From: Planctomycetota bacterium
GTDB lineage: Bacteria > Planctomycetota > MHYJ01 > JACQXL01
Length of the DNA stretch: 64,000 nt
Reading direction: 5' to 3'
NCBI GenBank assembly: GCA_038059695.1
Contig: JBBTIZ010000023.1
Location: 13,427-77,426 of the forward strand
Shown: positions 22,999 to 52,722 of the stretch, one piece after another
Numbering within the stretch: the first letter of the stretch is position 1
Layout: the number at the start of each line of letters is the position of its first letter
Program-made: the position numbers and the translations under genes
The notes under the pieces: generated by a model
What the model was told of the DNA's origin: nothing
What the model saw: the letters and a program-made list of their open reading frames with translations, nothing else
Databases searched by the model: none

Positions 22999-23056
22999 CA
23001 GATATACACAGATAAATGCGAACACGAATGGCACGAATAGAACGAATATCACGAAT
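22999..23056. repeat. Array of short direct repeats (cacagat x3, then NNcgaat x4), one of the CACGAAT-family arrays
   Basis: cacagatgcacacagatatacacagataaatgcgaacacgaatggcacgaatagaacgaatatcacgaat. Related arrays at 25871-25966, 35522-35640 and 52663-52722. Confidence 0.6.
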
Positions 23057-23057
23057 T

Positions 23058-23093
23058 AAATCCCCTCTATTAAGAGGGGTAAGGGGTGTGTTA
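23058..23093. repeat. Hairpin REP-like element aaatcccctctattaagaggggtaaggggtgtgtta (copy 2)
   Basis: Matches 10011-10047. Confidence 0.65.
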
Positions 23094-23146
23094 ATTACAT
23101 TACTTGCCTCTTGACAATAGTACCCTAATTTAGTAGTAAATCAACT

Positions 23147-23707
23147 ATGTCTCGTACCATTCTTATTGTTATCGGTATCCTCTGTGCCGTGATTACCGCC
23201 GCTGGCTCCATTTACCTTCTAACTTATGACCCGGAATACCAGCATAAGGAAGTTCTATCCGTCACAACTTATGTGCTACCCACAGCCAATAAATTAGATG
23301 AATGTTTATTCTCAACCCATGACGAATCTGCCCCGCCTATAACACTGACTGATAATAATAACCCCATTACGCCTTTTATTATCCCGGGCGAAATTACTAT
23401 GGATGAATCTGTTAATGCTATGAATATACAGGAGGCAAAAAATCTGGAAAAACTAGTGTTGGAACGCATAAATAAAATCATGCGTTTGAAAGACAGACAA
23501 GAAGGCGTAAAAGCCAGGGCCGAAATAAGATTTTTCCCTAATCAGAAATTAGTCAACTATCAATTATACATATACAAAGATCTATATAGCGGTAGTTTTT
23601 ATGATATAAAATGCCGGAAAGATAGTAACAAGTGGATTATTATCGATGACGGCAACGGTTCAATAGGATCTTTCCAGATGACTCACTGTTTCCAGGGTCG
23701 TTACTAA
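23147..23707 (+). CDS. Hypothetical membrane-anchored protein
   Basis: N-terminal TM ILIVIGILCAVITAAGSIYLL. No recognised domains. Confidence 0.35.
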   Translation: MSRTILIVIGILCAVITAAGSIYLLTYDPEYQHKEVLSVTTYVLPTANKLDECLFSTHDESAPPITLTDNNNPITPFIIPGEITMDESVNAMNIQEAKNLEKLVLERINKIMRLKDRQEGVKARAEIRFFPNQKLVNYQLYIYKDLYSGSFYDIKCRKDSNKWIIIDDGNGSIGSFQMTHCFQGRY

Positions 23708-23864
23708 TTCAACCGCCTGAAAATAATTTTCTATAAGGAATCCAGGAGACCCGAATGCTGCCCCTGCATTCCTGGCCTCCTTATAAATATTCTCTGCGTA
23801 ATCTGCGTTTATCTGCGTCCAAATACTCTCCGTGCCCTCTGTGTCTCTGTGGTAAAAATGTATT

Positions 23865-24837: not shown

Positions 24838-24842
24838 AATAA

Positions 24843-24940: not shown

Positions 24941-25867
24941 CTATATTACATACCCCACCACATACGGATTGAAGGTGACACTCATATTTCCGTTGGCATC
25001 AGTGAACGCATATTGGAACGAGCCAGCGATTATGGGCACAATAACCTGACCGCCGTAGACCTGATTGACATTACGCGCCTCTACGCCGATAGCGTAACAT
25101 TCAGGTTGTGTTGCATCGCGCCTGAGACGGCAATTGAGCCAACCCTGGGGCGGCGGGGCAATGCTCTGCTGCACCAATTCAATCTGCAAGATTAATGCCG
25201 TGGCCTCTGGCGGAATACTCGGATTCGGAGCCGAGGGCATCCAATCTTGGTTGCCCATCACCATCAAACTGGTCAACTGTATCCGGGTCGGCAGGAAGGT
25301 GATTCTGCTTCCCCCGCCCGCGCCGGGCGCGAGTTTCTCGGCCGTCACCGCGCCGTTGGCGATTTCGCTCGTTCCCACTGCGTTAGCCGCAATCTCGGAA
25401 GCGCCGACCGAATTGGGCGCCAGTTTGGATGCGGTTATGGCATTATCCGCTATCTTGGCATTAGTCACGGCGCTGGACGCCAGTTTTCCGCTGGTTACAT
25501 TCAGGTCCTTGATATTATCGCTCTCCACCGCATTAACCGCTATCTTGGCTCTGGTAATCGCCCCGTCTTTGATTTCCGAGCTCTCCACTTGCGGCGTAAT
25601 CGGCCTGATAAGCGGCGATGGCGGAACGATTGGCAGAACCAATTTATCCTGGGTAATCGTCCGGTCCGCAATCTTGTCGTTGGTTACGCACAGGTCAGCC
25701 AGTTTATTGGTGGTGACGCACTCCTCCTGCAACTTAGCGCTGTTGACAGCGCCGTCGGCTATCTTATCGGTCGTGACCGCGCTCTTGGCAATCTTGGATG
25801 TCGTGATTGCATAGGTCGCGATGTTTGAGGTCTTTACTTCGTTAGGTTTTAACATATAAATCTCCAA
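24941..25867 (-). CDS. Tandem nonapeptide-repeat protein (x-A-V-T-x-x-K-I/L-A periodicity) with a C-terminal globular domain of about 130 aa; fibre/surface-type
   Basis: Roughly 18 consecutive 9-residue units, e.g. SAVTTDKIADGAVNSAKLQEECVTTNKLADLCVTNDKIADRTITQDKL... The repetition is also visible at the DNA level. C-terminus from RITFLPTRIQ... is non-repetitive. Confidence 0.5.
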   Translation of the reverse strand: MEIYMLKPNEVKTSNIATYAITTSKIAKSAVTTDKIADGAVNSAKLQEECVTTNKLADLCVTNDKIADRTITQDKLVLPIVPPSPLIRPITPQVESSEIKDGAITRAKIAVNAVESDNIKDLNVTSGKLASSAVTNAKIADNAITASKLAPNSVGASEIAANAVGTSEIANGAVTAEKLAPGAGGGSRITFLPTRIQLTSLMVMGNQDWMPSAPNPSIPPEATALILQIELVQQSIAPPPQGWLNCRLRRDATQPECYAIGVEARNVNQVYGGQVIVPIIAGSFQYAFTDANGNMSVTFNPYVVGYVI

Positions 25868-25870
25868 TCT

Positions 25871-25966
25871 TTAACACGAATCACACGAATCCGGCGAATC
25901 GCACGAATAATCCATTAATTCATTCGTGTCATTCGTTCCCATTCGTCCCATTCGTGTTCGTATTTT
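25871..25966. repeat. CACGAAT-family array with palindromic arrangement (4 forward, then about 4 inverted copies)
   Basis: cacgaatcacacgaatccggcgaatcgcacgaat ... attcgtgtcattcgttcccattcgtcccattcgtg, in the intergenic region between the two cassette genes. Confidence 0.6.
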
Positions 25967-26031
25967 GTTTTAATTAAAGGGAAGCGGGGCACGGTTAATT
26001 CCGCACCCCGCATTCCACATTTCCCGTTTGG

Positions 26032-26826
26032 TTACGGTGTTGCCACCTTTATCTCCAGGTATTTCCGGCCGTCTATCAAAATCCAATCGCAATGCGAGAC
26101 CCCGGCCGTGGCAAAAGCCACATAAGCCACGTTCTGCAAAGAGGCAATCAGATTATTGATATGGTCGTTCTCCTGAGTCATGACAGTCGGGTCCCAATCC
26201 GCGCTAATCAGCGTCTTGCCTGACTGCACGATTCGGTTAACCACTGCCGACTTCAGGGCCGTTCTCATATCCGGCATCACCCGGGCCACGTTGATGGGCC
26301 CGCCCAGGCCGACCTGGTCGTCGCCCCTGAGCAGCCGTTCGGTCTTGATATCGCCGGTCAGCCACATGGCCGCTATCGGCGCCATACCTATACCAATCTC
26401 CCGTGAGCCGGTAAAAGGCAGGACGCTCCGGGCCACATGCTGTCCATAGACCTCGGCTGAGGCGTCAATCGCCTCCTTATACCGCTTGCAGGGTTCGCCA
26501 TCCACGGTCTCGAACGCCTGGGCCAGTGAACCGCGGTAGTTCTCATAACCATTGGCGATATTATCCGCCTGCTTGCGGACAATCCGGTTACGGTCCAGAC
26601 CTGAACGGGACACATAAGCCGGATTCATAGTCGGCGCGTATGCCGTGGCCGCCGGCAAAGCCATTTTGGACTTATAATCGGACTCATTGCCGATGGCCTG
26701 TTGCATCTGCTGATAGGTCAGGTCAGCGTTATTCTTGGTCCCGCGCTTCCAGCGCTCCACCTGGACCTCCCCGGCCTCTGCCAAATCCAGCAACACGGCC
26801 AGTTTTACCTCACTGATTGTTCCCAT
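26032..26826 (-). CDS. Hypothetical protein (264 aa), no recognisable domain; first gene of the cassette
   Basis: Long ORF with a balanced composition. No motif I can assign. Confidence 0.45.
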   Translation of the reverse strand: MGTISEVKLAVLLDLAEAGEVQVERWKRGTKNNADLTYQQMQQAIGNESDYKSKMALPAATAYAPTMNPAYVSRSGLDRNRIVRKQADNIANGYENYRGSLAQAFETVDGEPCKRYKEAIDASAEVYGQHVARSVLPFTGSREIGIGMAPIAAMWLTGDIKTERLLRGDDQVGLGGPINVARVMPDMRTALKSAVVNRIVQSGKTLISADWDPTVMTQENDHINNLIASLQNVAYVAFATAGVSHCDWILIDGRKYLEIKVATP

Positions 26827-26843
26827 AATCTAATCTCCTTTTC

Positions 26844-26900
26844 TTACTGACCGTTTGAGCAAAGCAAATTACGGTCAGTTAGACCCGCCTCTGGCGGGTT
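26844..26900. repeat. Direct repeat B (double-hairpin element)
   Basis: ctgaccgtttgagcaaagcaaattacggtcag hairpin plus cccgcctctggcggg hairpin. See repeat A. Confidence 0.6.
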
Positions 26901-26968
26901 ATCGTTTTAGAATCAGCCGGTTGGGCTACCGGTTCACGATAGCCCGAACCCGGCTGAGACAGATGAAG

Positions 26969-27052
26969 TTATTTCTTCACCTTATCGCGAATCACCGTAA
27001 GAACGATTTCCAAGACCGTCCTGATGATGCGCCTCCAAAAACTCTTTTTCAT
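26969..27052 (-). CDS. Candidate small ORF (27 aa), basic/hydrophobic peptide MKKSFWRRIIRTVLEIVLTVIRDKVKK
   Basis: Strong RBS AGGTGGA 7 nt upstream of the ATG. A stable hairpin (26913-26958, agccggttgggcta/tagcccgaacccggct) lies immediately downstream. Not in the ORF track because it is under 60 aa. Confidence 0.3.
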   Translation of the reverse strand: MKKSFWRRIIRTVLEIVLTVIRDKVKK

Positions 27053-27330
27053 AGTTGTTTCCACCTATTTTGTTATTTAAATGACTAACTGCCAAACAGG
27101 CATCAAGCAGATACTCATAGAAGACAAGCCGGGGCCGGGGCAAGCGGCATGACTCACCTGCGCCCGATCATGCGCCCTGGTCTTGTGTCCTGCTAATAAC
27201 ATACCGAATAGTAAGGAACTCTTCAAAGAGGGACGAACGATTACAGATTGTTTAAGATTGGCTGTTGCAACCGATTGTATTCTAAGGAGTTATGCGAGAC
27301 GGTCAAAATGAACGAAAATGAAATATGAAA

Positions 27331-28473
27331 TTATTCATCCGTAGATGGATGCGTATTGAGAGATTCCTTCAATCTATTAATATTCGGGCGGGCTTTACCA
27401 GAAGATGTTGGAGCAACGATTTCAATATCCTTTAAAAATATCGGGCATAGATAACCCTTTTTACTATCAAGACGTCCGATTTCTGGTAATCCGGCTGATA
27501 CTAATACCTTGTTTATTTTGCTGATTGCCCCGCTGATACGGTTTTTATAGTTTTCCGGCTCAAGCTTATAATCCTCCATTTTCCAGCCACACGCCTTGAC
27601 AATATCTTCTAAAGAAATATAAGTATTCTTGGTCTTGCCGGAAACCTTATCAAGTATTCTTAATAGGATTTTATGCGTCTGGTTTATTAATCCTATTAGC
27701 TGTTTATCCTTGTATTGGAATACGCTTTTGGTCAGGTTTATTTTTGATTTCTTTGCCTTGCTGAACGAAATGATTTTCTCCTTCTGGCTGATTTTAGTAA
27801 GGATATCCTGGCTGATAACCCAATTCTTATCGCCGAAAGCGTCTGCAAAATTGACATAATGAATATTCCTATCCTCTAATATCCGGCGAGTATTTTGGCT
27901 AATCTTATCAAAGAAAGGCATCAGGACAATCCCTGCCTGGTATCTCGCTATTTGGGATGGTATGCTCAAAAGCAGTGTCCCGGCTGTCTTGGGATTACTG
28001 CACAGGGCCAGAATAATCGCGGTTGACTTTCCCCTGACATTCAAAACGCCGATAAAATAAAGCCGGTCGTCAAGTTTGTCATAGTTACCAGCCAGATTAT
28101 TATCATTACGGATTAGTTCTACGAATGCCCTAATATTAAAGGAATACCTGCATAGGTCGTTTTTATCAATAGAAACCATCCCTTCAGATGGATGTATCAT
28201 ACAAAATGCCTCAAGGTTTCCGTCCTGTTTTTTGACGGATAATGTGCAACCGTGTGGACAGCGGGGGGATTTAATATTTTCGATTACACCATCGGAATGG
28301 TTAATATAACTTAAAATATTCTTCTTGGTCAAATCGGCACAGTTTGATGGAGAAATGGCGAGCAGTTCTTTTTTGCTAAATAAGGAATTAGGGCTTTTCT
28401 CTATCTGCTTTAAAAGGAACTTTATCATTTTCTTTAATGCCGATATCTTCCAGGTACTTATTGATAATTTCAT
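27331..28473 (-). CDS. Hypothetical protein (380 aa) in the Type III R-M island, last gene of the co-oriented operon
   Basis: AT-rich codon usage matching the island. Cys/His cluster SPRCPHGCTL...AFCMIHP. Degenerate P-loop-like GVLNVRGKST. Real start possibly the internal Met MIKFLL. Confidence 0.45.
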   Translation of the reverse strand: MKLSISTWKISALKKMIKFLLKQIEKSPNSLFSKKELLAISPSNCADLTKKNILSYINHSDGVIENIKSPRCPHGCTLSVKKQDGNLEAFCMIHPSEGMVSIDKNDLCRYSFNIRAFVELIRNDNNLAGNYDKLDDRLYFIGVLNVRGKSTAIILALCSNPKTAGTLLLSIPSQIARYQAGIVLMPFFDKISQNTRRILEDRNIHYVNFADAFGDKNWVISQDILTKISQKEKIISFSKAKKSKINLTKSVFQYKDKQLIGLINQTHKILLRILDKVSGKTKNTYISLEDIVKACGWKMEDYKLEPENYKNRISGAISKINKVLVSAGLPEIGRLDSKKGYLCPIFLKDIEIVAPTSSGKARPNINRLKESLNTHPSTDE

Positions 28474-29545
28474 TATATTTTTTGCTTCCCAAGTCAGTAC
28501 TGCTGGGCGGGGTTATTTCAAAACTCACTTCTATTGCTTTTCCATTAACCTGTAATATAAATAGAAATTTAGCCGAAGTCAATTCGCCTGAATCTATCCC
28601 TAATCCGGCAATGTCATTATTAAATGTCTGGTTAATATCAGTTGAATCTATGCGAATAGTCGGTTTTGTAGAACCATTTAGGACCATAGTTACGGCAGTT
28701 AATTTAACCGACCGTATTGTCTCATTGACGGGGAAACTAAAATCATCTTCTTGAAGTGGTTTTAGGATATAGGTGTCATCTCTATCAGGGCGCATCGCTT
28801 GACTTTTGTCACAGATAATAATATCGGCAAAAACATCAATATATTTTTCTCTGTCTTTTCGAAGTGAAGTATGTACGGAAAAAGATGTTTTCCCGTCGTA
28901 TTGCAGAATATCCTCATAAGCGGGTCTAAAAATAATGGTTTCTGTATTTACCTCTTTGTCTTCATCTTTCAAGACCAATTGATGCTTTTTATTTTTCCCG
29001 CGTATTACTGCAATAATCAATTTGCCATTTTCCTCATAATGCCTGATAATACAATCCTTCCCTTGACGCCTGTCTTTAAACCATGCTTTAATCTGCGCCT
29101 TGAACTGTTCCATTTTTCCTGGCGTTATTGTAAAGCTGGTACATTCCATTTTATGTCGGCTCAATTTATTGCCTGAGCCATAAAGCAGGTAATAATCGCT
29201 GAGATGGTTATAGGCCGGTTTACTCTTCAGGAATATACCGAGTATCAATTGGTGTTGGTTTTCTTTCCCCGTGGACGCAATATGATATTTCTGGATTACA
29301 TCCGGGATAAAACCAGTCATCGTTTTAGCAATATCATAAAGACGTGCTATTTCTTCTTCAATCGTATCTTTCAGGTCGGTATCCGTGAGATTATCTAAAT
29401 ATGCTATAACCGTGCTAAAAGGCGCCGTTGATTCTTTTAAGTTAAGCGTAATATGATACTTCCTAAAATATTCCTCTAGAATGTCTGGAGTTGATATTGC
29501 CGCATCCAAAAACTCAGTTACCTTGGTAGAACGAAACTTACCCAT
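28388..29545 (-). CDS. Hypothetical protein (385 aa) immediately downstream of res, same strand
   Basis: No recognisable motif. Tightly packed after res (res ends 29565). Confidence 0.45.
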   Translation of the reverse strand: MGKFRSTKVTEFLDAAISTPDILEEYFRKYHITLNLKESTAPFSTVIAYLDNLTDTDLKDTIEEEIARLYDIAKTMTGFIPDVIQKYHIASTGKENQHQLILGIFLKSKPAYNHLSDYYLLYGSGNKLSRHKMECTSFTITPGKMEQFKAQIKAWFKDRRQGKDCIIRHYEENGKLIIAVIRGKNKKHQLVLKDEDKEVNTETIIFRPAYEDILQYDGKTSFSVHTSLRKDREKYIDVFADIIICDKSQAMRPDRDDTYILKPLQEDDFSFPVNETIRSVKLTAVTMVLNGSTKPTIRIDSTDINQTFNNDIAGLGIDSGELTSAKFLFILQVNGKAIEVSFEITPPSSTDLGSKKYNEIINKYLEDIGIKENDKVPFKADREKP

Positions 29546-29564
29546 TTTAGGCCCCCTTTATAAC

Positions 29565-31946
29565 TCAACCTAATCTTAATTCTTCCCAATCGCTCCAGTC
29601 ATTCCGCAAGCATTTTTCCCAATCGTATTGTGCTTTTTGGTTGATTTTCCAAATGCCATTTACCGGAACGACTATTCCGCCGAAGAGTTTCTTACCCTTT
29701 TTAGTCTGTTCTTTGATATACTCCTGCAATCGTTCTGATTTTGCCTTGGTATAACTGCTACCCCCCCAGTCGCCCATATCCTTTGTCTCAAAAACGCCTA
29801 TTCTTCCATCCGCAAACCGGACTAAATAATCAGGATAGAATGTATGGACCACTCCGGTTGGATATTCATATTTAATGCCGAAATAATCCTTCTTGTTTTC
29901 GCCGTTCTTCCACCACCAAACGATGTTTTTAGCATTCGTTTTATCCTCTAAAAACCTCTCGAATTCCCTTTCGGGATTAGTGCGGTCAATATTCAAATAG
30001 CAATTATCATAGACATAGTTTTTAACCTTGAGCAATTCGTCGGTATGCGCGTTATAAAAACTCTCGTTTGGTATCTCGAAATCATAAATCTGTTCGCTCT
30101 CCTCAACACGCTTGGCAATCTCTTTCTCCCGAACAGTTTTATACTCCTCAACCGCTTTTAACAGAATACGCTCAAAGATATCCCTATTGCCGTTATGGAC
30201 AAAGATTTTCTGTATCATCATCGCTTCTTCATCCCAATCCTTAGCGCCCAGATGTCGCATAAACCAGACGTAAATCGTATTCTTGACCTTCGGCACCGAC
30301 CGCTTAATATTTTTGAATGAGCCAAGATGCTCCTTAATAATCTGCACAAATACCGCATCCAGATCGTTACCGGCAATATTCAAACTGGCTTTCTGGGCAG
30401 AATCTATTTCGCCCTCTAATTCGTCAAAAGTCTTGCCATCAATCTTTGCATCTCGGATAATTTCCTGCTGGTATTTCTTTAAATCAACAACAATACCTTT
30501 TTTCTCAAGCAGTTTCTTATTCTGGTCAAAGAATTCCCTTTGTTTAATGCCAAACTCCGCGCAGGCAACCTTCTCAAACACCGGGTCAAAACTCGAGGTG
30601 ATATCTCCGTAATCAGCCCGCGATTTATAGTAGGAGCTAAGCTTTATATCCTTATAACAATCTTTAAGCGTCCCCTTTAGATGCTTGATGATATTCGGAT
30701 TATATTCTTCCTTTTTGACAATAATGCTCTGGACGTTGGTGTATATATATCCGGTATTCAGGGCTTCGCTTGGGTAATGCCTTAATTCCGGCATCCGCAG
30801 TATCCGGCCCACGGTCTGGATTTCAAAGGTCTCGCTGTGTGATTCCCGGAATTTGACCAGAATATGCGCCCGGGGACAATCCCATCCCGTATCAACTACT
30901 TGCTTGAATACAAAAAATTCTATTATATTATCCGGTTCGGCAATCGATTCTATTTCTTCTATTGCTGGATAGCCATGAATTCGAATTGCTAATTTCTTAT
31001 TTGCTTCAGCAATACCTTTCTTCGCCAAAAATTCTTCAACAGCTTTTTTCTTGTCATCTCCGGCGTCGGCATTCGGTATCTGTATTAAAGCCAGCGGATT
31101 AATATTTGCCCCCTCCGCCTCAAATAATCTCTTTAATTCCAACCTCTTCCGATATGCTGCCTCTAAAACTACTTCCTGCGAATCGGTTTCATTATTGGCA
31201 ATTTTATCTATCTTCTCATTAATGATTATTTCTTTCTTTATTATACCTGCATCAATGACATCTTTCGGCTCTACACAAACATACCCGGCAATCCCCCGCT
31301 TTTCATCTCTGCGGTCAGGAATAAGTTTTGGCGTGGCGCTCATTTCCAGAATAATATCGGCGTTTATCTCGTCCCGCAATTCGTTGGTTCGTTCAGCCGT
31401 GGCGCCGATATGGCTTTCGTCTATAATCATTATTACCTTCCGTTGTTCCCGTGTTCTGGTAAGGACATCCCTGAAATTTATCTTTTCTCCGTCCTTCATC
31501 AGGATGTTTTTCCAATCGCCGGTTTCCTTATCTTTACTCCGTAATTTCTCCCAGTTAACCACTACAACCTCGTTACGGACAATCCGTTCCCTGCCGCCGG
31601 AAAATTCATCCTCAACCAAAGACACCCTCGGCGCTCCGCCGTAAATCTTTTCTAAAGCGCGTTTACTCTGAAGATGTAATTCGCCCTTACCAATACTCAC
31701 CCAAAGAAAACAAATATCCTCATCTGGTAATTCTTTAATAATCTCCTCAATAAACTTAGCTGTCATCAGGGTCTTGCCGCTTCCGGTCGGGGCCTGGAAA
31801 ACACAGACCTTTTTCATTCCCTCGTTAGCCAGCAGTTTCTTAACGGCGGTAAGCAATTGCTCAATGGCTGTTTCCTGATACGGCTTAAGGTCAATATTCA
31901 TAAATATCCTCGTATATATCCAGAATCTTCTGCGGAATCGGCTCAA
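29565..31946 (-). CDS. res: Type III restriction enzyme Res subunit (SF2 helicase plus C-terminal PD-(D/E)xK nuclease)
   Basis: Walker A QAPTGSGKT, DEAH-like IIDESH, helicase motif VI region, C-terminal nuclease motif PDYLVRF...GVFETKD. Probable start at the MNIDLK Met. Confidence 0.8.
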   Translation of the reverse strand: MSRFRRRFWIYTRIFMNIDLKPYQETAIEQLLTAVKKLLANEGMKKVCVFQAPTGSGKTLMTAKFIEEIIKELPDEDICFLWVSIGKGELHLQSKRALEKIYGGAPRVSLVEDEFSGGRERIVRNEVVVVNWEKLRSKDKETGDWKNILMKDGEKINFRDVLTRTREQRKVIMIIDESHIGATAERTNELRDEINADIILEMSATPKLIPDRRDEKRGIAGYVCVEPKDVIDAGIIKKEIIINEKIDKIANNETDSQEVVLEAAYRKRLELKRLFEAEGANINPLALIQIPNADAGDDKKKAVEEFLAKKGIAEANKKLAIRIHGYPAIEEIESIAEPDNIIEFFVFKQVVDTGWDCPRAHILVKFRESHSETFEIQTVGRILRMPELRHYPSEALNTGYIYTNVQSIIVKKEEYNPNIIKHLKGTLKDCYKDIKLSSYYKSRADYGDITSSFDPVFEKVACAEFGIKQREFFDQNKKLLEKKGIVVDLKKYQQEIIRDAKIDGKTFDELEGEIDSAQKASLNIAGNDLDAVFVQIIKEHLGSFKNIKRSVPKVKNTIYVWFMRHLGAKDWDEEAMMIQKIFVHNGNRDIFERILLKAVEEYKTVREKEIAKRVEESEQIYDFEIPNESFYNAHTDELLKVKNYVYDNCYLNIDRTNPEREFERFLEDKTNAKNIVWWWKNGENKKDYFGIKYEYPTGVVHTFYPDYLVRFADGRIGVFETKDMGDWGGSSYTKAKSERLQEYIKEQTKKGKKLFGGIVVPVNGIWKINQKAQYDWEKCLRNDWSDWEELRLG

Positions 31947-33405
31947 GTGTTACACCTTTCCAATCATGAAAATCATTTTTATCCAGCCCGAACGGGTCAA
32001 GTTCAAAGCAATAGAGAGTTTTCTCGCCTGTCATTTTATCTAATTCTTTCTTGAGTGATTTTAATTCAGTCCGGTCAGGCGAATAATATACTGCCATAAT
32101 ACGCTCACCCTGCTCAAAGATACGGTAATCGTCCGTCTTCTTCTTCTCCTCAAAAATACCCTCTCTGAGGCAAAGCATCTCAGTGCATTCCTTGGTAATA
32201 CGGATTTTCAGGGTGTCCTTGCTAAAAGTCCGCTTCACAAAGGCGGTCTTGAAATATTTAAGTTCATCACTATGATCAGAAAGGCGAGGGTAGCCACTCA
32301 TGCATTTTTTTATTCGTGGATAGCATACTTCTTCGGCAATTTCATTTTCATTATTTGTACACAATATAAATTTTCTATTTCCCCCATCTTTTCTATTAAG
32401 TTCTAAAACCGCATGACCAGTTGTCCCTGAACCAGCGAAAAAATCTAAAACTATCGCTTCTTTATTATCATCTATACATATTTGTAATGTATCAAAAACC
32501 GCGTATAGCGATTTGGGATAATCAAAAGACCTTGATTTTCCAAGTATTTTTTGTAGCAATATTGTTCCATGAGATGAAGCATCATATTTTGGATCAGCCC
32601 ATACCGTTTTCGGCTTTCTGCCACCCTTTATCCTATCTTTTGCGAAAACTGTATACTTGCCATTATTCTCTTTAATAACAATTTCAGTTTCAGCTTTCTC
32701 CGTAAAACTCACCTTACCCCACCGCCAAACCCTTTTTCCATCATGTGAATCAATCGGTAAAATTTTAACCAAATCTTTATTCTTTTCTTCTTCTACTGAA
32801 ACTCGTTTTGTTTTTTTATTGTAATATATCGGATAGAAAAGATTAGGCCTTTTATCGGGAGTTGAATTAGACCCTGTTCTTTTTAGGGGTAGTAATCGGT
32901 AAAAAGATATTTCGTCTTCTAATGGAAAACCCTCGACCTGTTCTTCTGTTAGCTTTAATTTATTAGTTTTAGTAACCTGGGTATTTAGTCCATAGAAAAG
33001 AGCGTATTCGTGAGAGGTTGCAAAATATTTATCGTCGCTTCTTCCTCGAGGGTTGTGCATGATAGTAACCACCCCAAGTTTATTACCCTCCCCAAAAATT
33101 TCGTTCATCAATAAATTGAGATTTCCAATTTCATAGTCATCAATAGTTACAATTATTATTCCTTCGTCTTTTAATAAATTTTTAGCAAGGCGCAAGCGTT
33201 TGCTCATAAACGAAAGCCATTTGCTGTGCTTATAGGTGTCATCTTTTTCTACATACTGATTGTTGTATTTCCAGCTCTTATTACCCGTATTGTATGGTGG
33301 GTCAATATAGATAACATCAATCTTGCCTTGATGGGTATAGTTCAAAACAGATAAGGCGTGGTAATTATCGCCTTCTATACAGGATGTTAACTGGTTTAGA
33401 GTCAC
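31891..33405 (-). CDS. mod: Type III DNA methyltransferase Mod (beta-class N6A/N4C MTase), main reading frame
   Basis: Motif IV DPPY (YIDPPYNTG) precedes motif I FDFFAGSGTTGHAV, which is the beta-class order. This frame begins at a GTG immediately after a C9 homopolymer. Confidence 0.8.
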   Translation of the reverse strand: MTLNQLTSCIEGDNYHALSVLNYTHQGKIDVIYIDPPYNTGNKSWKYNNQYVEKDDTYKHSKWLSFMSKRLRLAKNLLKDEGIIIVTIDDYEIGNLNLLMNEIFGEGNKLGVVTIMHNPRGRSDDKYFATSHEYALFYGLNTQVTKTNKLKLTEEQVEGFPLEDEISFYRLLPLKRTGSNSTPDKRPNLFYPIYYNKKTKRVSVEEEKNKDLVKILPIDSHDGKRVWRWGKVSFTEKAETEIVIKENNGKYTVFAKDRIKGGRKPKTVWADPKYDASSHGTILLQKILGKSRSFDYPKSLYAVFDTLQICIDDNKEAIVLDFFAGSGTTGHAVLELNRKDGGNRKFILCTNNENEIAEEVCYPRIKKCMSGYPRLSDHSDELKYFKTAFVKRTFSKDTLKIRITKECTEMLCLREGIFEEKKKTDDYRIFEQGERIMAVYYSPDRTELKSLKKELDKMTGEKTLYCFELDPFGLDKNDFHDWKGVTLEPIPQKILDIYEDIYEY

Positions 33406-33596
33406 TGGGGGGGGGCGGTAATGGCTTTGTTCTTTACTTCCTTAAGAATCGGCAGGGCGTTTTCTGAATCTTTCTCAAACTGTTCCTTGGTATGTTCCTC
33501 ATCCCAGACCAAGCCGTATTTTTTGCGGCTTTCTAATTTCTCTATTCTCTTAATTAATTCTTTCTTATCCCAATCCTGATAGGTATTCTTCGGCAT
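33402..33596 (-). CDS. mod: N-terminal fragment of Mod (64 aa), separated from the main mod frame by a homopolymer frameshift
   Basis: Peptide ...YGLVWDEEH... resembles Type III Mod N-termini. Ends ...AITAPPQ-stop, reading through the C9 tract. One extra C fuses it in-frame to MTLNQL... Confidence 0.6.
   Translation of the reverse strand: MPKNTYQDWDKKELIKRIEKLESRKKYGLVWDEEHTKEQFEKDSENALPILKEVKNKAITAPPQ
33407..33415. repeat. Homopolymeric G9 (C9 on the coding strand) tract at the mod frameshift site
   Basis: gtcactgggggggggcggtaatgg. C10 (or C7) would give one continuous mod ORF of about 568 aa. Confidence 0.85.
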
Positions 33597-33764
33597 AAAT
33601 ATTAATAATAAACATCTTTTTCAGGAAAGCAACAAATAACCTGCGTTTTTAAGTAGGGTATAGGATTAATACACACCAGCACACCATATCATAAACACTA
33701 TATGATGGCGCGCTATGGGGTAGGTATGGTTATTGTTTACACCATACGGCCAAGCCCTGTATTA

Positions 33765-33874
33765 TACATCAGCCGCGCATAATCTGTATATCAGCCGTGC
33801 GCATGTTATATATCAGCCGGTGACAAGTTATATATCAGCCGTGCGTATAGTGTATATCAGCCGTGGGCGTAGTG
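33765..33874. repeat. Five tandem 22-bp direct repeats (consensus TATCAGCCGTGCGyaTaGTgTA) in the mod-operon upstream region
   Basis: tacatcagccgcgcataatctgta / tatcagccgtgcgcatgttata / tatcagccggtgacaagttata / tatcagccgtgcgtatagtgta / tatcagccgtgggcgtagtgta. Confidence 0.8.
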
Positions 33875-34066
33875 TACACGATTATTGCGCTTACTCTATA
33901 TAAGCTAAGCGGTTACTGTATATGGCTCATGCCCTCACCACCAGTCAGGGAGTCTTGAGGGGTACTACCCCCCACCCTCCCCCCTCCCCCTGTTGGGAAA
34001 GTGAAAAGATGAGAGTGGAAAGATGAAAGCTTGAGAAAATCAGGAAACACGGATTGCGCAGGTGTT

Positions 34067-35518
34067 TTAAGGCTTCTTCCAACAGACCCTTAGTTCTCGC
34101 GCTGCCTTGACCTCATCCAGCCGGCCGACGGGGGTAGTTGTTGGCGCGGACTTGACCACATCGGGTGTGGTTTCGGCCTCTTTGGCGATAGCAATCATGA
34201 CCTTGATGAATTCGTCCAGGGTCTCTTTGCTTTCGGTCTCGGTCGGTTCTATCATCAATGCCTCGTGAACGATGAGCGGGAAATAAATCGTGGGTGGATG
34301 GTATCCGTAGTCCAACAGCCGCTTGGCTATGTCCAAAGTCCTGACCCCGAATTTCTTTAACTGAATCGTCGCGTCCAGGACACATTCGTGCATGCAGTGC
34401 CGGTCATACTGGAGATGGTAGTGTTGCTTGAGTTGGGCCATGACGTAGTTGGCATTTAAGACGGCCATCTGGCTGGCCTTTTTCAGGCCGGCTGGCCCCA
34501 TCATCCGGATATAGACATAGGCCCGAATCAGGACCGCGATGTTGCCGAAGAATCCCTTGATTTGGCCGATAGAATCGGGACGGTCATAGTCCAGCGAGTA
34601 TTCGTCGTTGTTCTTGACGACAATCGGCACGGGCAGGTAAGGCGTGAGTTTGGCTGTGACCGCAATCGGGCCCGCACCCGGACCGCCGCAGCCGTGCGGC
34701 GTGGAAAAGGTCTTGTGGAGATTAAAGTGCAGGACATCGGCGCCGGCCAGGGCCGGAGTGGTGATGCCCATAATGGAATTGAAATTGGCGCCGTCCATAT
34801 AAATAAATCCGCCGCTGTCGTGGACTATCTTGCAAATCTCCACAATGTGCTCGTCAAACAGGCCGAGCGTATTGGGGATAGTCAGCATCAGGCAGGCCAC
34901 TTCATTGTTCATCTTGGCCTTCAGGTCCGGGATATCGACATTGCCGTGCGCATCGGACTTGACCTCGACGGCATGGAATCCGCACAGGGCGCCAGAAGCC
35001 GGGTTGGTGCCGTGCGCCGAATCCGGGATAAGGACCTTGGTTCTCTTATCATTATGTTTCTTGAAATACTGATGGATGACTTTTAGGCCGGTGTATTCGC
35101 CGTGCGCGCCGGCCGCCGGGGTCAGCGACACGCCGTCAAAACCGGAGATTTCCTTCAAGAACTCGCCCAGTTCATACATTATCCGCAGGATGCCCTGAAC
35201 CGTTGAGGCCGGCTGGTAGGGATGGAGCTGGGCAAAGCCGGTCAGGCCGCACAGGGTCTCGTTGACCTTGGGATTGTATTTCATGGTGCAGGAACCGAGC
35301 GGATAGAAACCGGTATCAACGCCGAAGTTCTTGCGGGCCAGATTGGTATAATGGCGCACCAGGGTGAGTTCGTCCACCTCAGGCAGGTCTGCCAGCGTCG
35401 GCCTTAAGGCGGCGGACGGCAATAATTTATTTATATCCTGGGCCGGCACGTCCAGGGCCGGCAAGGCGCAGGCGCTCCGGCCCGGACGGGATTCTTCAAA
35501 GATAAGCTTGTCGTTCAT
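34067..35518 (-). CDS. gcvPB: Glycine dehydrogenase (decarboxylating) subunit 2
   Basis: Typical GcvPB sequence throughout, e.g. [16 protein letters not shown]. Confidence 0.85.
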
Positions 35519-35521
35519 AAA

Positions 35522-35640
35522 ACTAATTCTAACACGAATGTCACGAATAGAGCGAATGGCACGAATAAATTCGTGTGATTAGTCGCATTCGCTTCGCGGT
35601 CTCTTCGAGTTCGTGTGATTCGTGTTCTATACTTAATCCT
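35522..35640. repeat. CACGAAT-family array with palindromic arrangement between gcvPA and gcvPB
   Basis: cacgaatgtcacgaatagagcgaatggcacgaataaattcgtgtgatt...gagttcgtgtgattcgtgtt. Confidence 0.6.
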
Positions 35641-37003
35641 TAATTGTGTTTACGAGTTTATCAATCTCCTCTTTCGTGTTCATTTCGGTCACACACAGGA
35701 GCATGGCGTTCTTTAGTTTGGGATAAAATCTCTTTAAGGCCAGGCCGCCGATGATATTGCTTTTCAATAGTTTCTTGTTAATCTGCTCCGGATTCCTGGG
35801 ACATTCGATAACGAATTCGTTGAAATACGGGCCGCTGAACAGGAGTTTGAAGCCCGGGATTTTGGATATCTGGTCAGCCGCGCAGTGCGCCTTTTGTAGA
35901 TTGAGTTCAGCCACCTGCTTCAGGCCGGTCTTGCCCACGGCGGACAGGTAGATGGCCGTCCGGATGGCGCAGAGGGCCTGGTTGGAACAGATGTTGGACG
36001 TGGCCTTTTCCCGCCTGATATGCTGTTCCCGGGTGGACAGGGTCAGGACGAACCCGCGCCGGCCTTTGGCGTCTGTGGTCTCGCCGACTATCCGGCCGGG
36101 CATCTTGCGGATATGGGCCATCTTGGTAGCCATAAAACCCAGATGCGGGCCGCCGAATGACATCCGGTTGCCTAACGGCTGGGCATCGCCCACAACTATG
36201 TCAACTCCGTAATCGCCGGGCGGCTTGAGCAATCCTAAGGAAATCGGATTGACCACCGCTATCAAAACAACCCCCTTATATTCCCCCTTTGTTAAGGGGG
36301 ATTGAGGGGGTTGTCTCCGGATGATTTCAGCAATTTTATCCGCCGGTTCGATGATGCCGAAGAAATTGGGCGATTGATAAGCCACGCAGGCCGTATTGCT
36401 ATCTAATACTTTTTCTAATGCCTCTACTGAGGTGACGCCATCGGAGAAATCTATTTCTATGATATTGATATCCAAGTCCTCCAGCCAGGCCTTGACCGTA
36501 GCCCGGTATTCCGGATGGATGGTCTTGGAGATAATGACCTTCTTTTTGTTGGTGGTGTGGAGCGCCATGAGGATGGCCTCGGCCAAAGCGGTCGCGCCGT
36601 CATAGAGCGATGCGTTGGACACCTCCATGCCGGTCAGCTGGCACATCATGGTCTGGTATTCAAAAATAGTGGTCAGCGCGCCCTGGCTGGTCTCGGGCTG
36701 GTACGGGGTATAGGCCGTATAGAATTCGCTCCGAGCAGCCAGGTGGTCCACCACGGCCGGGATAAAGTGGTTGTAACAGCCCGCGCCCAGGAAAGACGGG
36801 GTGTTGGCGACATTGGTATTTTTGTCTGCCAGTTCGGCCAGTAGTTTGGTGGCTTCCATCTCGCTTAGCGGGGCCGGCAGGGCCAGGGGTTTAGTCAGAT
36901 GTAATTCTTTGGGGATGCTGGAAAACAGGTCTTCCAGGTTGGCCACATTGGCCGCGGCCAGCATTTCCCGGATGTCAGTATCAGTATGCGGAATATAGGG
37001 CAT
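35633..37003 (-). CDS. gcvPA: Glycine dehydrogenase (decarboxylating) subunit 1
   Basis: Typical GcvPA sequence (ISLGLLKPPGDYGVDIVVGDAQPLG). Contains a short hairpin-encoding insertion near 36271-36320. Confidence 0.85.
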   Translation of the reverse strand: MPYIPHTDTDIREMLAAANVANLEDLFSSIPKELHLTKPLALPAPLSEMEATKLLAELADKNTNVANTPSFLGAGCYNHFIPAVVDHLAARSEFYTAYTPYQPETSQGALTTIFEYQTMMCQLTGMEVSNASLYDGATALAEAILMALHTTNKKKVIISKTIHPEYRATVKAWLEDLDINIIEIDFSDGVTSVEALEKVLDSNTACVAYQSPNFFGIIEPADKIAEIIRRQPPQSPLTKGEYKGVVLIAVVNPISLGLLKPPGDYGVDIVVGDAQPLGNRMSFGGPHLGFMATKMAHIRKMPGRIVGETTDAKGRRGFVLTLSTREQHIRREKATSNICSNQALCAIRTAIYLSAVGKTGLKQVAELNLQKAHCAADQISKIPGFKLLFSGPYFNEFVIECPRNPEQINKKLLKSNIIGGLALKRFYPKLKNAMLLCVTEMNTKEEIDKLVNTIKD

Positions 37004-37427: not shown

Positions 37428-37480
37428 ACACGCGCTACTTTCTATGAAGAACAATAAATCCTTGAAACTTCTGCCACTGA

Positions 37481-37514
37481 GCGCCATAAGGGCGCCATGG
37501 CGCTTCGGCGCCAG
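37481..37514. repeat. 34-nt repeat gcgccataagggcgccatggcgcttcggcgccag (copy 1), contains the palindrome ggcgccatggcgcc
   Basis: Identical 34-mer at 52746-52779. Confidence 0.75.
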
Positions 37515-37557
37515 AAGGCACAAAGACACTAAGAAGAAATTAACTGGTCGTTTTCTT

Positions 37558-37586
37558 CGTGCCTTAGTGTCTTGGTGGCTAAATTT
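37558..37586. repeat. 29-nt repeat cgtgccttagtgtcttggtggctaaattt (copy 1); forms a hairpin with upstream aaggcacaaagacactaag
   Basis: Identical 29-mer at 53366-53394. Confidence 0.75.
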
Positions 37587-37660
37587 TATACCTTCCTGCA
37601 CCTTACATTATGTTATGTTATTAAAAAGGGCAAATAAAATCAGATAAAATACAAATAAGG

Positions 37661-37741
37661 TTGACCTCGCACATAAATTTATTATACTTATATTTATAGT
37701 TGGCTGTATAAACGCGATATAAATTTATGTGCGGGGTTGAC
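37661..37741. promoter_or_regulatory. Inverted repeat (cgcacataaattta / taaatttatgtgcg) with TTGAC boxes in the gcvH-htrA divergent intergenic region; likely operator/promoter
   Basis: 14-bp arms about 38 bp apart. A TTGACA at the right end sits about 45 nt upstream of the htrA ATG, with a possible -10 TATCTA and RBS GGAGGTG. Confidence 0.35.
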
Positions 37742-37785
37742 AGAATTACTCGGGCTTATTATCTAACTTATGGAGGTGTACTCAT

Positions 37786-47406: not shown

Positions 47407-47414
47407 GATAAAGT

Positions 47415-48545: not shown

Positions 48546-48583
48546 TCAGGTGCTTCATAATTAATAATTCGTAATTACAAATA

Positions 48584-50050: not shown

Positions 50051-50052
50051 TT

Positions 50053-50571
50053 ATGAAATTTATTTCCAAACTGTCTCAGCGAGAACGGATGTACTTTTAC
50101 ATTACCGCGGTGATTATTACCCTCTTTCTGGTGGACCGTTTTATCTTCGGCATGATGCTCGGACAGATTAACCAACTGGATGAACGGATATCTACCCTGA
50201 AAGATGAACTGGCTAATGATAAAAAGATTATCTCTTCTAAAGATAACATCAACAAGGAAAGCGAACTCTACGGCAAATACCTGGCCAAAGAAGAAAACCC
50301 TGACCGTGAATTGCCGAAAATAATAAACACCCTGGCTATCCAGTCCGAATTGATTAACTCTGAATTAAAGCCCATTCCATCAAAAGATGGGAATAGATAT
50401 CTGGTGGAACTAAACGCCGAGGGCAAGATGAAGAATATAGTTAGCTTTATGTATAACCTGAATATGGGGCATTCACTGCTCAAGGTGGAAAAAATAGACC
50501 TCTCGCCCAAAGCGGCAAAATCGGAAACCCTTAAGATATATATCTTAATCTCCAAGGCCGTGGTGCAATAG
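50053..50571 (+). CDS. GspM/PilO-like bitopic protein
   Basis: Single TM YFYITAVIITLFLV. Size and position after gspL. Confidence 0.4.
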   Translation: MKFISKLSQRERMYFYITAVIITLFLVDRFIFGMMLGQINQLDERISTLKDELANDKKIISSKDNINKESELYGKYLAKEENPDRELPKIINTLAIQSELINSELKPIPSKDGNRYLVELNAEGKMKNIVSFMYNLNMGHSLLKVEKIDLSPKAAKSETLKIYILISKAVVQ

Positions 50572-50598
50572 CCATTATAGTAAGGCAGTCTGCCAAAT

Positions 50599-52662
50599 AT
50601 GATTCCTCAAGAAAGAGAAATCTACTGGTATATCCCCCGCATCCTGATCGTGGTTCATTACGGCCTGTTCATTATCGCTTCAATCATATTTTTCTACGGC
50701 GTCCTTAAACACTTCCGGCTCATTCGCCTGGGCAAGAAAGACAACCGCCTTTCGTCTCTGCCCCAGCGCCTTTTTCATCTGGTTTATTACGGGCTGTTCC
50801 AGCGCCGTATCCTGGAACGGCTCTATCAGGGCGCTACCCACACCGGCATCTTCTACGGCCTGGGCCTCCTCTATATCGGCACCCTCGTAGTCCTGGTCCA
50901 GTCCGACCTGGGCATCATCATACTGACCGGCGCATTCTATCAATACTTTTCACTGGCTATGGATTTAGCCGGCGCAGCGCTTTTAATCGCCCTGTTATTC
51001 GTCATTATCCGGCGCTATATCATCAGGCCGGTTGAATTAGACAACCAATGGGACGACCTGCTGGTTATCTTGTTCCTGGGCGCTCTTGTCATCACCGGAT
51101 TCCTCCTGGAAGGCAGCCGGATGGCAATAACCGAGATACCTCAACAATTCGCCATTCGCTATTTCTCGCCGCTCGGGCTCCTGGCCGGAAAATTAATTAT
51201 CGCTTTGGGCATAACCGAATCCGCGGTCCGGATTTATTATCCCATCTGCTGGTTCACCCATTCCACTGTGCTGGTGGCTCTTATTGCTTATTTTCCCTGG
51301 TCCAAACTGATGCACATATTCACCGCGCCATTGAATATATTCTTCCGTGATTTGGAACATCCGGGCACGCTGGTCAACCTGGACCTGGAAACATCAGAAG
51401 AATTCGGCATCACCAAGATAACCGACTTCACCTGGAAACACCTGCTGGACCTGGATGCCTGCACCAGATGCGGACGCTGTAACACCGGCTGTCCCACCAA
51501 CCTGAGCAATAAATCGTTGAAGCCCAAACAACTGATTCAGAACCTCAAAAACCACCTGTTCGCCCAGCCCCTGCGCGCAGGAACGGGGTTCAACAAGGTA
51601 TCTGTCAAGGGGCAGTTGCCCAATCTGGCGCCCGAGACCGTTTCCTATGACGAAATCTGGGATTGCACCACCTGCGGATTCTGTAAGTCCAATTGCCCGG
51701 TCTTTATCGACCATCCACCCAAACTGTTGGAATTCCGGCGCCATCTGGTCCTGGCTGAAAGCAATTTCCCGCCTGAGGTCAAGACCATGTTCAAGAATAT
51801 GGAAACCAACGGCAACCCCTGGCCAATCAGCTGGGACAAACGCAGTGATTGGGTTAAAGCGGAGCCCGCTACCGCGGGCGGAGTCCCGACGAATGTCGGG
51901 AACTTGAGAATCCTAAACGAGGGCGATAAAACCGATATCCTGCTCTGGGTGGGTTGCGCCGGCGCCACCGATGACCGCAATACCCGGGTAGCCCGGGCCC
52001 TGGTCAAGGTGCTCCAAAAAGCCGGAGTGGATTTCGCCATTCTCGGCAATGCCGAACGCTGTTGCGGCGACCCGGCCCGGCGCATCGGCAACGAATATCT
52101 CTACCAGCAACTGGCCGATGAAAATATCCAGACCCTCAAGAAATATAAATTCTCCCGGATTCTGACCTATTGCCCGCATTGCCATAACACCCTCAAGAAC
52201 GAATACCACCAGATGGACGCTAATTTCAACGTCCTGCATCACAGCGAATTCATCTGGGAACTAATCCAATCAGGTAAATTATCAGTTTCGCAATCAGCCA
52301 TTGCCAATCTGCAATCGGTCACGTATCACGACTCCTGTTATCTGGGCCGGTATAACGACATCTACAATGCGCCCCGGCAGATTCTAAAATCCATACCCGG
52401 CGTGGAATTTAAGGAGATGCCCCGCAACCACAAAAAGAGTTTCTGTTGCGGCGCCGGCGGCGGACGGATGTGGATGGAGGAAAAACGAGGCGACCGGATT
52501 AACCAGATTCGCATCCAGGAAGCGCTTGGTACAGTCAAGCAGGGAACGGTTATCACGGCCTGTCCCTACTGCCTGACTATGTTAGGGGATGGCATCAAGG
52601 AAAAAGGCATTACCGACCAACTCAAAGCGCTGGATATCGTTGAGATACTAAGCAATTCTTAA
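50599..52662 (+). CDS. Fused membrane oxidoreductase: NarI/DsrM/HdrE-like heme-b TM domain + two [4Fe-4S] ferredoxin motifs + two CCG domains (HdrD/DsrK-like)
   Basis: About 6 TM helices with conserved His residues, CTRCGRCNTGCP and CTTCGFCKSNCP, and CCG motifs CCGDPA and CCGAGGG. Confidence 0.6.
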   Translation: MIPQEREIYWYIPRILIVVHYGLFIIASIIFFYGVLKHFRLIRLGKKDNRLSSLPQRLFHLVYYGLFQRRILERLYQGATHTGIFYGLGLLYIGTLVVLVQSDLGIIILTGAFYQYFSLAMDLAGAALLIALLFVIIRRYIIRPVELDNQWDDLLVILFLGALVITGFLLEGSRMAITEIPQQFAIRYFSPLGLLAGKLIIALGITESAVRIYYPICWFTHSTVLVALIAYFPWSKLMHIFTAPLNIFFRDLEHPGTLVNLDLETSEEFGITKITDFTWKHLLDLDACTRCGRCNTGCPTNLSNKSLKPKQLIQNLKNHLFAQPLRAGTGFNKVSVKGQLPNLAPETVSYDEIWDCTTCGFCKSNCPVFIDHPPKLLEFRRHLVLAESNFPPEVKTMFKNMETNGNPWPISWDKRSDWVKAEPATAGGVPTNVGNLRILNEGDKTDILLWVGCAGATDDRNTRVARALVKVLQKAGVDFAILGNAERCCGDPARRIGNEYLYQQLADENIQTLKKYKFSRILTYCPHCHNTLKNEYHQMDANFNVLHHSEFIWELIQSGKLSVSQSAIANLQSVTYHDSCYLGRYNDIYNAPRQILKSIPGVEFKEMPRNHKKSFCCGAGGGRMWMEEKRGDRINQIRIQEALGTVKQGTVITACPYCLTMLGDGIKEKGITDQLKALDIVEILSNS

Positions 52663-52722
52663 ACACGAATCCCTCGACTATTCGTGTCCATTCACTTCTA
52701 TTCGTGTCATTCGTGTTCTCTT
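52663..52722. repeat. CACGAAT-family array (1 forward, 3 inverted copies)
   Basis: cacgaatccctcgactattcgtgtccattcacttctattcgtgtcattcgtg. Confidence 0.55.

Follow-up and report, generated by a model that had tools for sequence, protein, structure and literature searches.

A 64 kb stretch of a planctomycete contig (JBBTIZ010000023.1), which we call the window, contains short direct and inverted repeats of the heptamer CACGAAT at four intergenic sites, designated E1 to E4. E1 separates a divergent lpdA-like gene from an unknown gene of 186 aa. Two unknown genes of a Type III restriction-modification (R-M) island flank E2, which is 18 nt 5' of the ATG of a 304-aa gene, with a Shine-Dalgarno (SD) sequence in between. 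E3 takes up the gcvPA-gcvPB spacer, to within 13 nt of the gcvPB ATG, and E4, with a convergent gene opposite, begins with the final stop codon base of a NarI/4Fe-4S/CCG oxidoreductase gene. A preliminary description of the sequence had pointed out the four sites and their gene contexts, and both were confirmed. On balance, and with somewhat better than even confidence, we favor the interpretation that E1-E4 are copies of one dispersed, non-autonomous foldback repeat resembling repetitive extragenic palindromes (REPs) and miniature inverted-repeat transposable elements (MITEs), whose arms are putative arrays of sites for a trans-acting protein.

Motifs were counted on both strands of the window, and expectations were derived from 100 shuffles. 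CACGAAT occurs 22 times, while 8.5 ± 2.6 occurrences were expected and no shuffle reached 22. The pair CGAAT-N4-CGAAT was found 13 times (0.27 expected; none of the 100 shuffles as high), and 12 of the 13 pairs fall within E1-E4. Pairs with one additional base (CGAAT-N5-CGAAT) are at chance level, with one occurrence versus 0.33 expected. Since N4 pairs are in excess and N5 pairs are not, the unit period in E1-E4 is exactly 9 bp, and not 9-10 bp as initially proposed. This is 1.5 bp below the helical turn of 10.5 bp, so that the four units of an arm do not lie on one face of the helix and the suggested helical-turn spacing is not supported.

Each arm consists of two to four units in tandem, each of 9 bp (CACGAAT and two free bases), and the arms face each other across a variable loop. 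Of the three loci expected to have a forward and an inverted array, all (E2, E3 and E4) are indeed mirrored; E1 lacks the inverted arm. E1, E2 and E3 have a fixed layout in which units 1, 2 and 4 read CACGAAT and, in unit 3, CGAAT follows a four-base, mostly purine spacer. The forward arm thus reads (G/T)AACACGAAT, nn CACGAAT, four-base spacer + CGAAT, nn CACGAAT, and the ends of the element read (G/T)AACACGAAT ... ATTCGTGTT(C). Within each of the arrays E1-E3 the heptamers are identical and the 2-4-nt spacers differ, for which the tandem repeat program TRF gives 72-85% matches only. Head-to-tail copies of one whole unit, as in a simple-sequence tandem repeat, were not found in E1-E3. Besides the four CACGAAT copies, the 64 kb hold at least six sister arrays (Table 1). 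One of these accounts for part of the interval first assigned to E1 (22999-23056): the remainder is E1 itself, but the initial 20 nt (22999-23018) belong to a different repeat, CACAGAT x3 with a period of 10.

Turnover between relatives and distribution

The neighborhood was compared with three syntenic relatives (L124-L126), whose GcvPB proteins are 88-89% identical to that of the window, and with a Brocadiia outgroup (L127, 69%). On the side of E4, four syntenic genomes (L128-L131) with 80-92% identical oxidoreductases were used. The gcvPA-gcvPB spacer has a mirrored array in all four close genomes (the window and L124-L126), each of another heptamer flavor: CACGAAT; CGCAGAT/CGCGGAT forward with CACAGAT inverted; GCRGAT; and a TACGAAT-like sequence. 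The same spacer in the outgroup L127 contains no array, only ordinary hairpins. At the E4 site, the window, L128 and L129 each have a mirrored array, in three different heptamer flavors. In L130 and L131 it is empty: the oxidoreductase gene and the convergent gene overlap by 9 nt and leave no spacer. Similar differences were found at further sites. The gcvH/trypsin spacer contains a CACNAAG element in the window and in L126 and none in L124 and L125; the 144-aa/3D spacer has an array in the window only and none in L129, L130 and L131; and E2 lies in an R-M island that is missing from L124, L125 and L126. The E1 site is an example of retention. In L125 the composite of 3 x CACAGAT and 4 x CACGAAT is kept with 48 of 49 heptamer bases identical, while about one third of the spacer bases differ (hand alignment) and the flanks are unalignable.

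Copies also recur at unrelated positions. A locus from another metagenome (L324) has an element with the left-arm spacers of E2 (CA, CCGG, CG); the gene whose SD and ATG lie downstream of this element is unrelated to the neighbor of E2. By these spacers, E2 and L324 belong to one copy lineage. Two CACAGAT sister arrays of the window (9977-10006 and 13232-13261) encode the identical tail PQI(N/D)TD plus stop in two unrelated genes, which looks like the behavior of an insertion. A 29-mer of the CACNAAG-flavor element at 53362-53387 is found again in L125, at a position that is not syntenic. Gain, loss, replacement and copy lineages together characterize the arrays as a mobile, or at least rapidly turning-over, repeat and not as fixed operators. 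The possibility, raised at the outset, that the arrays are only parts of one larger mobile repeat comes close to this result, as they form one dispersed family; however, the arrays are the repeat itself.

To determine the distribution, a three-unit pattern was scanned in a collection with one genome per species, and the figures refer to the matches listed. There were at least 120 genome loci, in Bacteroidota, Planctomycetota, Chloroflexota, Acidobacteriota, Nitrospirota, Desulfobacterota, Verrucomicrobiota, Spirochaetota and several candidate phyla. Among the carriers are Singulisphaera sp. GP187, Herpetosiphon giganteus DSM 589, Flavobacterium spp. and Persicobacter JZB09 (CP012852). Gamma-, Alpha- and Betaproteobacteria, Bacillota, Actinomycetota and Cyanobacteria gave none that was convincing among the matches listed. 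One match on a contig labelled Lactococcus garvieae (L094) resembles those of Prevotella, and we suspect that the contig is mis-binned. The exact four-unit layout was found at no fewer than 119 metagenome loci. The genome loci share features that the pattern did not demand: the left flank is rich in T, and the first CACGAAT directly follows a C in 77% of the arrays, with A or G usually before that C. No similar array was found in 5,426 E. coli genomes. There was one match in 72,556 plasmids (a Bacteroidota megaplasmid without annotation) and one in 50,697 phages (an uncultured faecal phage).

Array density is roughly one per 6-16 kb. The number of units ranges from 2 to more than 10, and several heptamer flavors as well as periods of 8, 9 and 10 coexist. 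A strict inverted partner arm (at least two exact units) is present in 59 of 190 arrays, 8-183 nt downstream. Most arrays (129 of 147) lie outside long open reading frames (ORFs), in gene contexts of all kinds (++ 35, -- 26, +- 25, -+ 15), including positions after convergent genes and over gene 3' ends. An origin as coding repeats of three amino acids was rejected on these grounds, as just 18 of the 147 arrays are inside long ORFs, although many matches in viral contigs are. Arrays were also found at contig ends more often than expected (e.g. L004, L015, L019, L062, L075), which is soft support for a dispersed repeat since it is a rough count only.

Constraint in the arms and competing explanations

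In 35 two-armed elements the arms co-vary with a score of 0.199, compared with 0.091 ± 0.011 in shuffles (0 of 500 reach this value) and at most 0.082 in slid controls. The signal is strongest at two bases outside the terminal heptamer (A:U 21, G:C 7, U:A 4 at one; C:G 24, A:U 5 at the other), and terminal inverted repeats such as those of MITEs are hence present. In elements of the 3+3 type, the spacer dinucleotides of the two arms are complementary in 25 of 65 cases versus 7.3 expected. The four-unit subfamily was anchored on the outermost unit of the partner arm only, and the inner units were read in register. In these partner arms, which had not been used for locus finding, the full heptamer positions match in 54-73% and the CGAAT core of unit 3 in 63%, while spacer positions match in 20-35% (about 25% by chance). 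With heptamers well above spacers, it is the heptamers, the 9-bp register and the mirrored, shortened third unit that are kept; continuous pairing is not. From this pattern, the arrays look like binding sites for a sequence-specific protein. They share with operator arrays the fixed period, the direct and inverted short repeats and the conservation of the motif rather than the spacer.

Such sites could simply serve the host, as arrays of cooperative, 9-bp-spaced heptamers for a regulator, a nucleoid-associated or a partition-type protein that are kept by host need and not by movement. In addition to the conserved heptamer and register with free spacers, the lack of strand bias, the use of one heptamer across phyla, the occupied gcvPA-gcvPB spacer in all four close relatives and the E1 composite kept at the syntenic site of L125 despite diverged flanks are in line with this explanation. 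We nevertheless consider it unlikely. Host sites would not be expected in all intergenic contexts, including those after convergent genes and over gene 3' ends, nor would they be expected to be empty in relatives, to differ in flavor at one site between genomes, or to show one spacer lineage at unrelated loci. Furthermore, the inverted repeats extend to bases outside the heptamers, which a binding site does not need, and no cognate gene is linked. All-against-all clustering of the ORFs of 239 loci yielded no recurrent neighbor gene other than housekeeping families (e.g. ABC transporters, kinases, AspRS), and confinement to the promoters of a regulon or linkage to a regulator gene was not seen in the contexts counted above. 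Of the proposal that the arrays are cooperative sites of a regulator, the resemblance to binding sites therefore stands, but a regulator of the neighboring genes is not supported, given the variety of contexts, the absence of a recurrent gene in the 239 loci and the presence/absence differences between close relatives.

Two known types of site were inspected and rejected. A sigma-54 promoter (TGGCACG-N4-TTGC), prompted by TGGCACGAAT, does not fit because its GG-to-GC spacing of 11 is incompatible with a 9-bp period. The terminal TTAACCACA differs from the DnaA box TTATCCACA by a single mismatch, but agreement is poor in the internal units and DnaA, unlike the arrays, is universal.

Alternatively, the arrays may be simple-sequence repeats that arose in situ by 9-bp slippage, with template switching (quasi-palindrome correction) producing the mirror symmetry, without any trans factor or transposition. 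This would account for the range of unit numbers, the coexistence of flavors and periods, the turnover of flavors at fixed sites and the lack of target-site duplications. It is also consistent with the search of viral contigs, in which 9-bp arrays were found at 76 loci for CACGAAT and 53 for CACAGAT, and at 42 and 13 loci for permuted control heptamers. The excess of CACGAAT over the controls is modest, and many of the viral-contig arrays, being inside long ORFs, are probably coding repeats. As control arrays are not rare there, the naive chance expectation for the genome scan (about 4) is too low as well. Slippage, however, would copy whole units together with their spacers, whereas here the spacers differ and the heptamers are identical. 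Nor does it explain why the peculiar four-unit layout with its shortened third unit is so frequent in metagenomes, why one spacer pattern occurs at unrelated loci, or why inverted partners in viral contigs numbered 4 and 9 for the CAC-type heptamers and 0 and 0 for the controls. We thus regard an origin in situ as rather improbable.

As single strands, E2, E3 and E4 form long imperfect hairpins on either strand (-15 to -38 kcal/mol). E2 folds at -31.6 / -37.6 kcal/mol with z = -6.7 / -5.9 relative to shuffles; the z values are -3.2 / -3.6 for E3 and -5.4 / -4.9 for E4. E1 gives no hairpin (z = -1.8). Rfam 15 returned only tRNAs and chance matches, both in a gathering-score scan of the window and 10 loci and in an E-value scan of E2. 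One-armed arrays between co-directional genes are 9 sense and 9 antisense, and mismatches on the mRNA strand are G:U in 18 and A:C in 18 cases. With no orientation bias and G:U equal to A:C, the symmetry of the arrays is at the DNA level rather than a product of RNA selection, and the foldable non-coding RNA considered in the preliminary description is disfavored. Hairpins selected in the transcript as 3'-end stabilizers, processing sites, terminators or translational attenuators would suit the folding of E2-E4, their positions (in an operon spacer, 13-18 nt 5' of starts, just past a stop) and the complementary spacers of the 3+3 type, but are very improbable, as no Rfam family matches, one-armed arrays are common and without preferred orientation, G:U mismatches show no excess, the spacers of the four-unit subfamily pair no better than chance, and E1 does not fold.

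No parent insertion sequence (IS) with the same ends was found among the ORFs between or beside the arrays in the 239 loci. Intervals between forward and inverted arrays 250-5000 bp apart contained no recognizable transposase; the ORFs of one candidate interval (L022) have no Pfam match. A transposase-like family was found neither among the window proteins scanned against Pfam nor in the Pfam-annotated syntenic loci. At the E1 locus, the array-flanked gene encodes another protein in every genome, and these proteins are not homologous.

Several observations weigh against a mobile foldback repeat. In more than 239 loci, neither an autonomous partner nor a transposase was found between the arrays or next to them, and the protein that binds the heptamers is hypothetical. 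Target-site duplications were lacking in 46 of 48 elements, which is no more than in shuffled pairs, so that mobility is deduced from presence and absence only and no mechanism is demonstrated. For a duplication at E4, the comparison with the empty site was ambiguous. The flavor turnover in the gcvPA-gcvPB spacer fits change in situ at least as well as repeated insertion. By a loose definition (no inverted CGAAT core at all within 200 nt), about 40% of the arrays are one-armed, 9-bp arrays of arbitrary heptamers are not rare in viral contigs (42 and 13 versus 76), and the taxon list is drawn only from among the matches listed.

If E1-E4 are nevertheless copies of one such repeat, the heptamers would be sites for a DNA-binding protein encoded elsewhere, most likely the enzyme that mobilizes or copies the element. 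This protein would bind cooperatively along each arm and bring both arms together. As target-site duplications are lacking, a classical DDE cut-and-paste transposase is less likely than a duplication-free route (HUH/Y1, recombinase or recombination-based), as for REP/REPIN. Unit number and flavor would then drift by slippage. Effects on neighboring genes, for example through a hairpin (-15 to -38 kcal/mol) in the gcvPA-gcvPB spacer, upstream of starts and after stops, would be secondary and would not explain why the element exists; effects on gcvPB translation or mRNA stability are plausible as side effects.

Neighboring repeats and islands

The array elements of the window and the repeats that adjoin them are listed in Table 1.

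Table 1. Positions of E1-E4, sister arrays and adjoining repeats in the window
Feature	Position	Strand	Remarks
Sister array, AACCACAGAT-type x3, period 10	9977..10006	+	over last codons and stop of SurA/PpiC-like gene
Sister array, AACCACAGAT-type	13232..13261	+	over last codons and stop of unrelated gene
Sister-flavor outer array, AACCACAGAT x3, period 10, directly upstream of E1	22984..23013	+	also in L125 ortholog
E1, one-armed array, four forward units	23020..23056	+	GAACACGAAT gg CACGAAT agaa CGAAT at CACGAAT
CCCC/GGGG hairpin repeat abutting E1	23058..23093	+	second repeat family; other copy 10012-10048; not in L125 ortholog
Inverted-orientation arrays of further flavors: ATCTGCG x3, then CTCCGTG / CTCTGTG / CTCTGTGGT	23792..23853	.	
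E2, four forward and four inverted units, 13-nt loop	25873..25958	.	best-preserved copy
E3, four forward and about five inverted units, some degenerate, 15-nt interruption	35531..35626	.	
Mirror-image CACNAAG-flavor array, period 8 (GCCAC..AAGGCACAAAGACACTAAG / CTTCGTGCCTTAGTGTCTTGGTGGC)	37473..37579	.	GC-rich hairpin after terminal GCCAC
E4, decayed copy, one intact forward and three inverted units	52662..52717	.	
Inverted array of other flavor (TTTATGCC, TTTGCGTCC, ..GTGGC), adjoining E4	52718..52783	.	
Right arm of another CACNAAG-flavor element (CCTTCGTGCCTTAGTGTCTTGGTGGC), period 8	53362..53387	.	

Some of these arrays are combined with other repeats. A 35-nt GC-rich hairpin (TGGCGCCATAAGGGCGCCATGGCGCTTCGGCGCCA) occurs at 37478-37514, at 52744-52778 and at about 2285-2320 of another locus (L378), in either orientation and directly after a terminal GCCAC. 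At 52744-52778 this is the GCCAC of the array adjoining E4, and the same composite is found in L378. That the hairpin follows the GCCAC in two different arrays is suggestive of nested, site-specific insertion.

The R-M island that contains E2 (approximately 24941-34067, about 9 kb) lies between a methyltransferase gene and gcvPB and is missing from the three syntenic relatives. Four of its genes are unknown, one with a weak PD-Lambda-5_A match; it also encodes a Type III methyltransferase (31891-33405) and a Type III restriction helicase (29565-31946). Near E1, the small gene in the slot that separates the methyltransferase gene from the lpdA-like gene differs between the genomes and shows no homology: it encodes a 186-aa protein in the window (23147-23707), a 225-aa HEAT-repeat protein in L124 (12899-13576) and a 214-aa, membrane-associated-looking protein in L125 (13118-13762); there is none in L126. 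The slot gene is bracketed by arrays in the window and in L125.

Next to E3, gcvPA (35633-37003, minus strand) has an in-frame 33-nt insertion at 36268-36313 that adds QPPQSPLTKGE. The added residues are specified by a CCCCC/GGGGG hairpin repeat that has relatives at 10012-10048 and 23058-23093; the insertion resembles the intragenic palindromic elements of Rickettsia. The insertion is not present in GcvPA of L124, L125 and L127, and GcvPA of L126 has two other in-frame inserts. One assembly of the window's population has a gap at this position. Downstream of gcvPB, a tandem array of 22-24-bp units (window 33761-33876; L124 11507-11966; the same spacer in L125 and L126) has the same position in all four related genomes, but its unit sequence and copy number vary among them.

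A direct TTGAC repeat borders each of two MITE-like elements, at 53425-53553 and 37660-37742, whose inverted termini are CCCCGTTAGAG...CTCTAACGGGG and CYCGCACATAAA...TTTATGTGCGGGG. L129 and L130 have an empty site (CCCCCTTGACAAAACCGGG...TATAAT) that resembles a -35/-10 promoter; the MITE-like insertion would thus split and regenerate the -35 box.

Known repeat systems and implications

The array family resembles REP/BIME/REPIN elements and MITEs in lifestyle and fails one defining feature of each. REPs, including the bacterial interspersed mosaic elements (BIMEs) and REPINs, are repetitive extragenic palindromes mobilized by RAYT Y1 transposases, and the REP unit is a 20-40-bp stem-loop tagged with GTAG or CGTC (survey in PMC3733652). 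Like these, the arrays are short, high-copy, extragenic imperfect palindromes located in operon spacers and after convergent genes, without target-site duplication. They also have lineage-specific variants, inverted pairs that yield a longer hairpin, and homologous sites with species-specific sequences. Unlike in REPs, each arm is a direct nonamer array with free spacers, with no tag and no stem-loop within the arm; one heptamer recurs across phyla, and no RAYT gene is linked here.

Bacterial MITEs (Correia/NEMIS, Nezha, Chunjie, RUP) have terminal inverted repeats, a length of 60-200 bp and hairpin potential. The array elements have all three, and they share with MITEs the presence/absence between relatives, the insertion near gene starts and ends and in operons, and the nesting with small repeats. 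In contrast to MITEs, no target-site duplication and no parent IS with the same ends was found, and the ends are tandem sub-repeats of variable number.

Two other systems are similar in architecture. Ribbon-helix-helix proteins bind operator or centromere arrays such as the omega heptads of pSM19035, the MetJ metboxes and the ParR/ParG iterons. On paper, these are alike in having very short repeats below one helical turn, in direct and inverted orientation, that are bound cooperatively by many dimers. They are, however, found only before the controlled operons or at the plasmid centromere, beside the gene of the binder, while the arrays described here are dispersed and have no linked gene. The foldback (FB) elements of eukaryotes have long inverted termini of short tandem sub-repeats in variable number, and most copies are non-autonomous. 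The likeness is architectural only, with no evidence of homology: FB elements belong to another domain of life and are much larger.

The nearest published analogue we found is the TAACTGA heptamer, which forms direct repeats in Beggiatoaceae, Cyanobacteria and Bacteroidetes (MacGregor 2015, PMC4679880, where long simple-sequence repeats are also reviewed). As in our arrays, many intergenic regions contain the heptamer in 2-6 or more copies, frequently just 5' of starts, with a patchy spread across phyla that includes Bacteroidetes and with no pattern in the neighboring genes (PMC4679880). TAACTGA repeats are contiguous with a period of 7, nearly always direct and biased in orientation towards the start codon (PMC4679880), whereas our arrays have a period of 9 and are usually mirrored and unbiased. 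On several viral contigs of 4-6 kb (L139, L165, L175), a one-armed CACGAAT x3 ends 1-2 nt 5' of an ATG without SD sequence, which recalls the start-codon-proximal TAACTGA repeats. No paper printing the 16-mers of the repeat was found, but the coverage of the literature was partial, and an earlier description is therefore possible. A search with two heptamers returned noise only, and keywords led to the REP and TAACTGA papers as analogues only.

A more far-reaching idea, which we put forward tentatively and consider doubtful, is that the heptamer arrays are the recognition sites of a putative DNA-binding protein common to Bacteroidota, Planctomycetota, Chloroflexota, Acidobacteriota, Nitrospirota and allied phyla and absent from Pseudomonadota, Bacillota and Actinomycetota. 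Such a protein might be a domesticated mobilizing enzyme of a new kind or a nucleoid/genome-organizing factor, and the arrays would be a cross-phylum superfamily of bacterial foldback elements with the conserved protein-DNA code CAC-N-R-A-N and a period of 8-10.

The arrays have practical consequences for the analysis of genomes. They lengthen called ORFs, with GcvPB being called at 501-527 aa in relatives versus about 483 aa, and supply new C-termini and stops. Lying 13-18 nt from starts, they can mislead annotation and alter expression. Several copies are located at contig ends of metagenome-assembled genomes, which makes them relevant for assembly. As the arrays mark sites of rapid intergenic turnover, they can be used for the comparison of close genomes. 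If one heptamer and register code does underlie small repeats in many poorly studied phyla, this would point to a conserved, unnamed system of protein-DNA recognition, and the carriers among the matches listed include cultivable organisms, namely Herpetosiphon, Flavobacterium and Singulisphaera.

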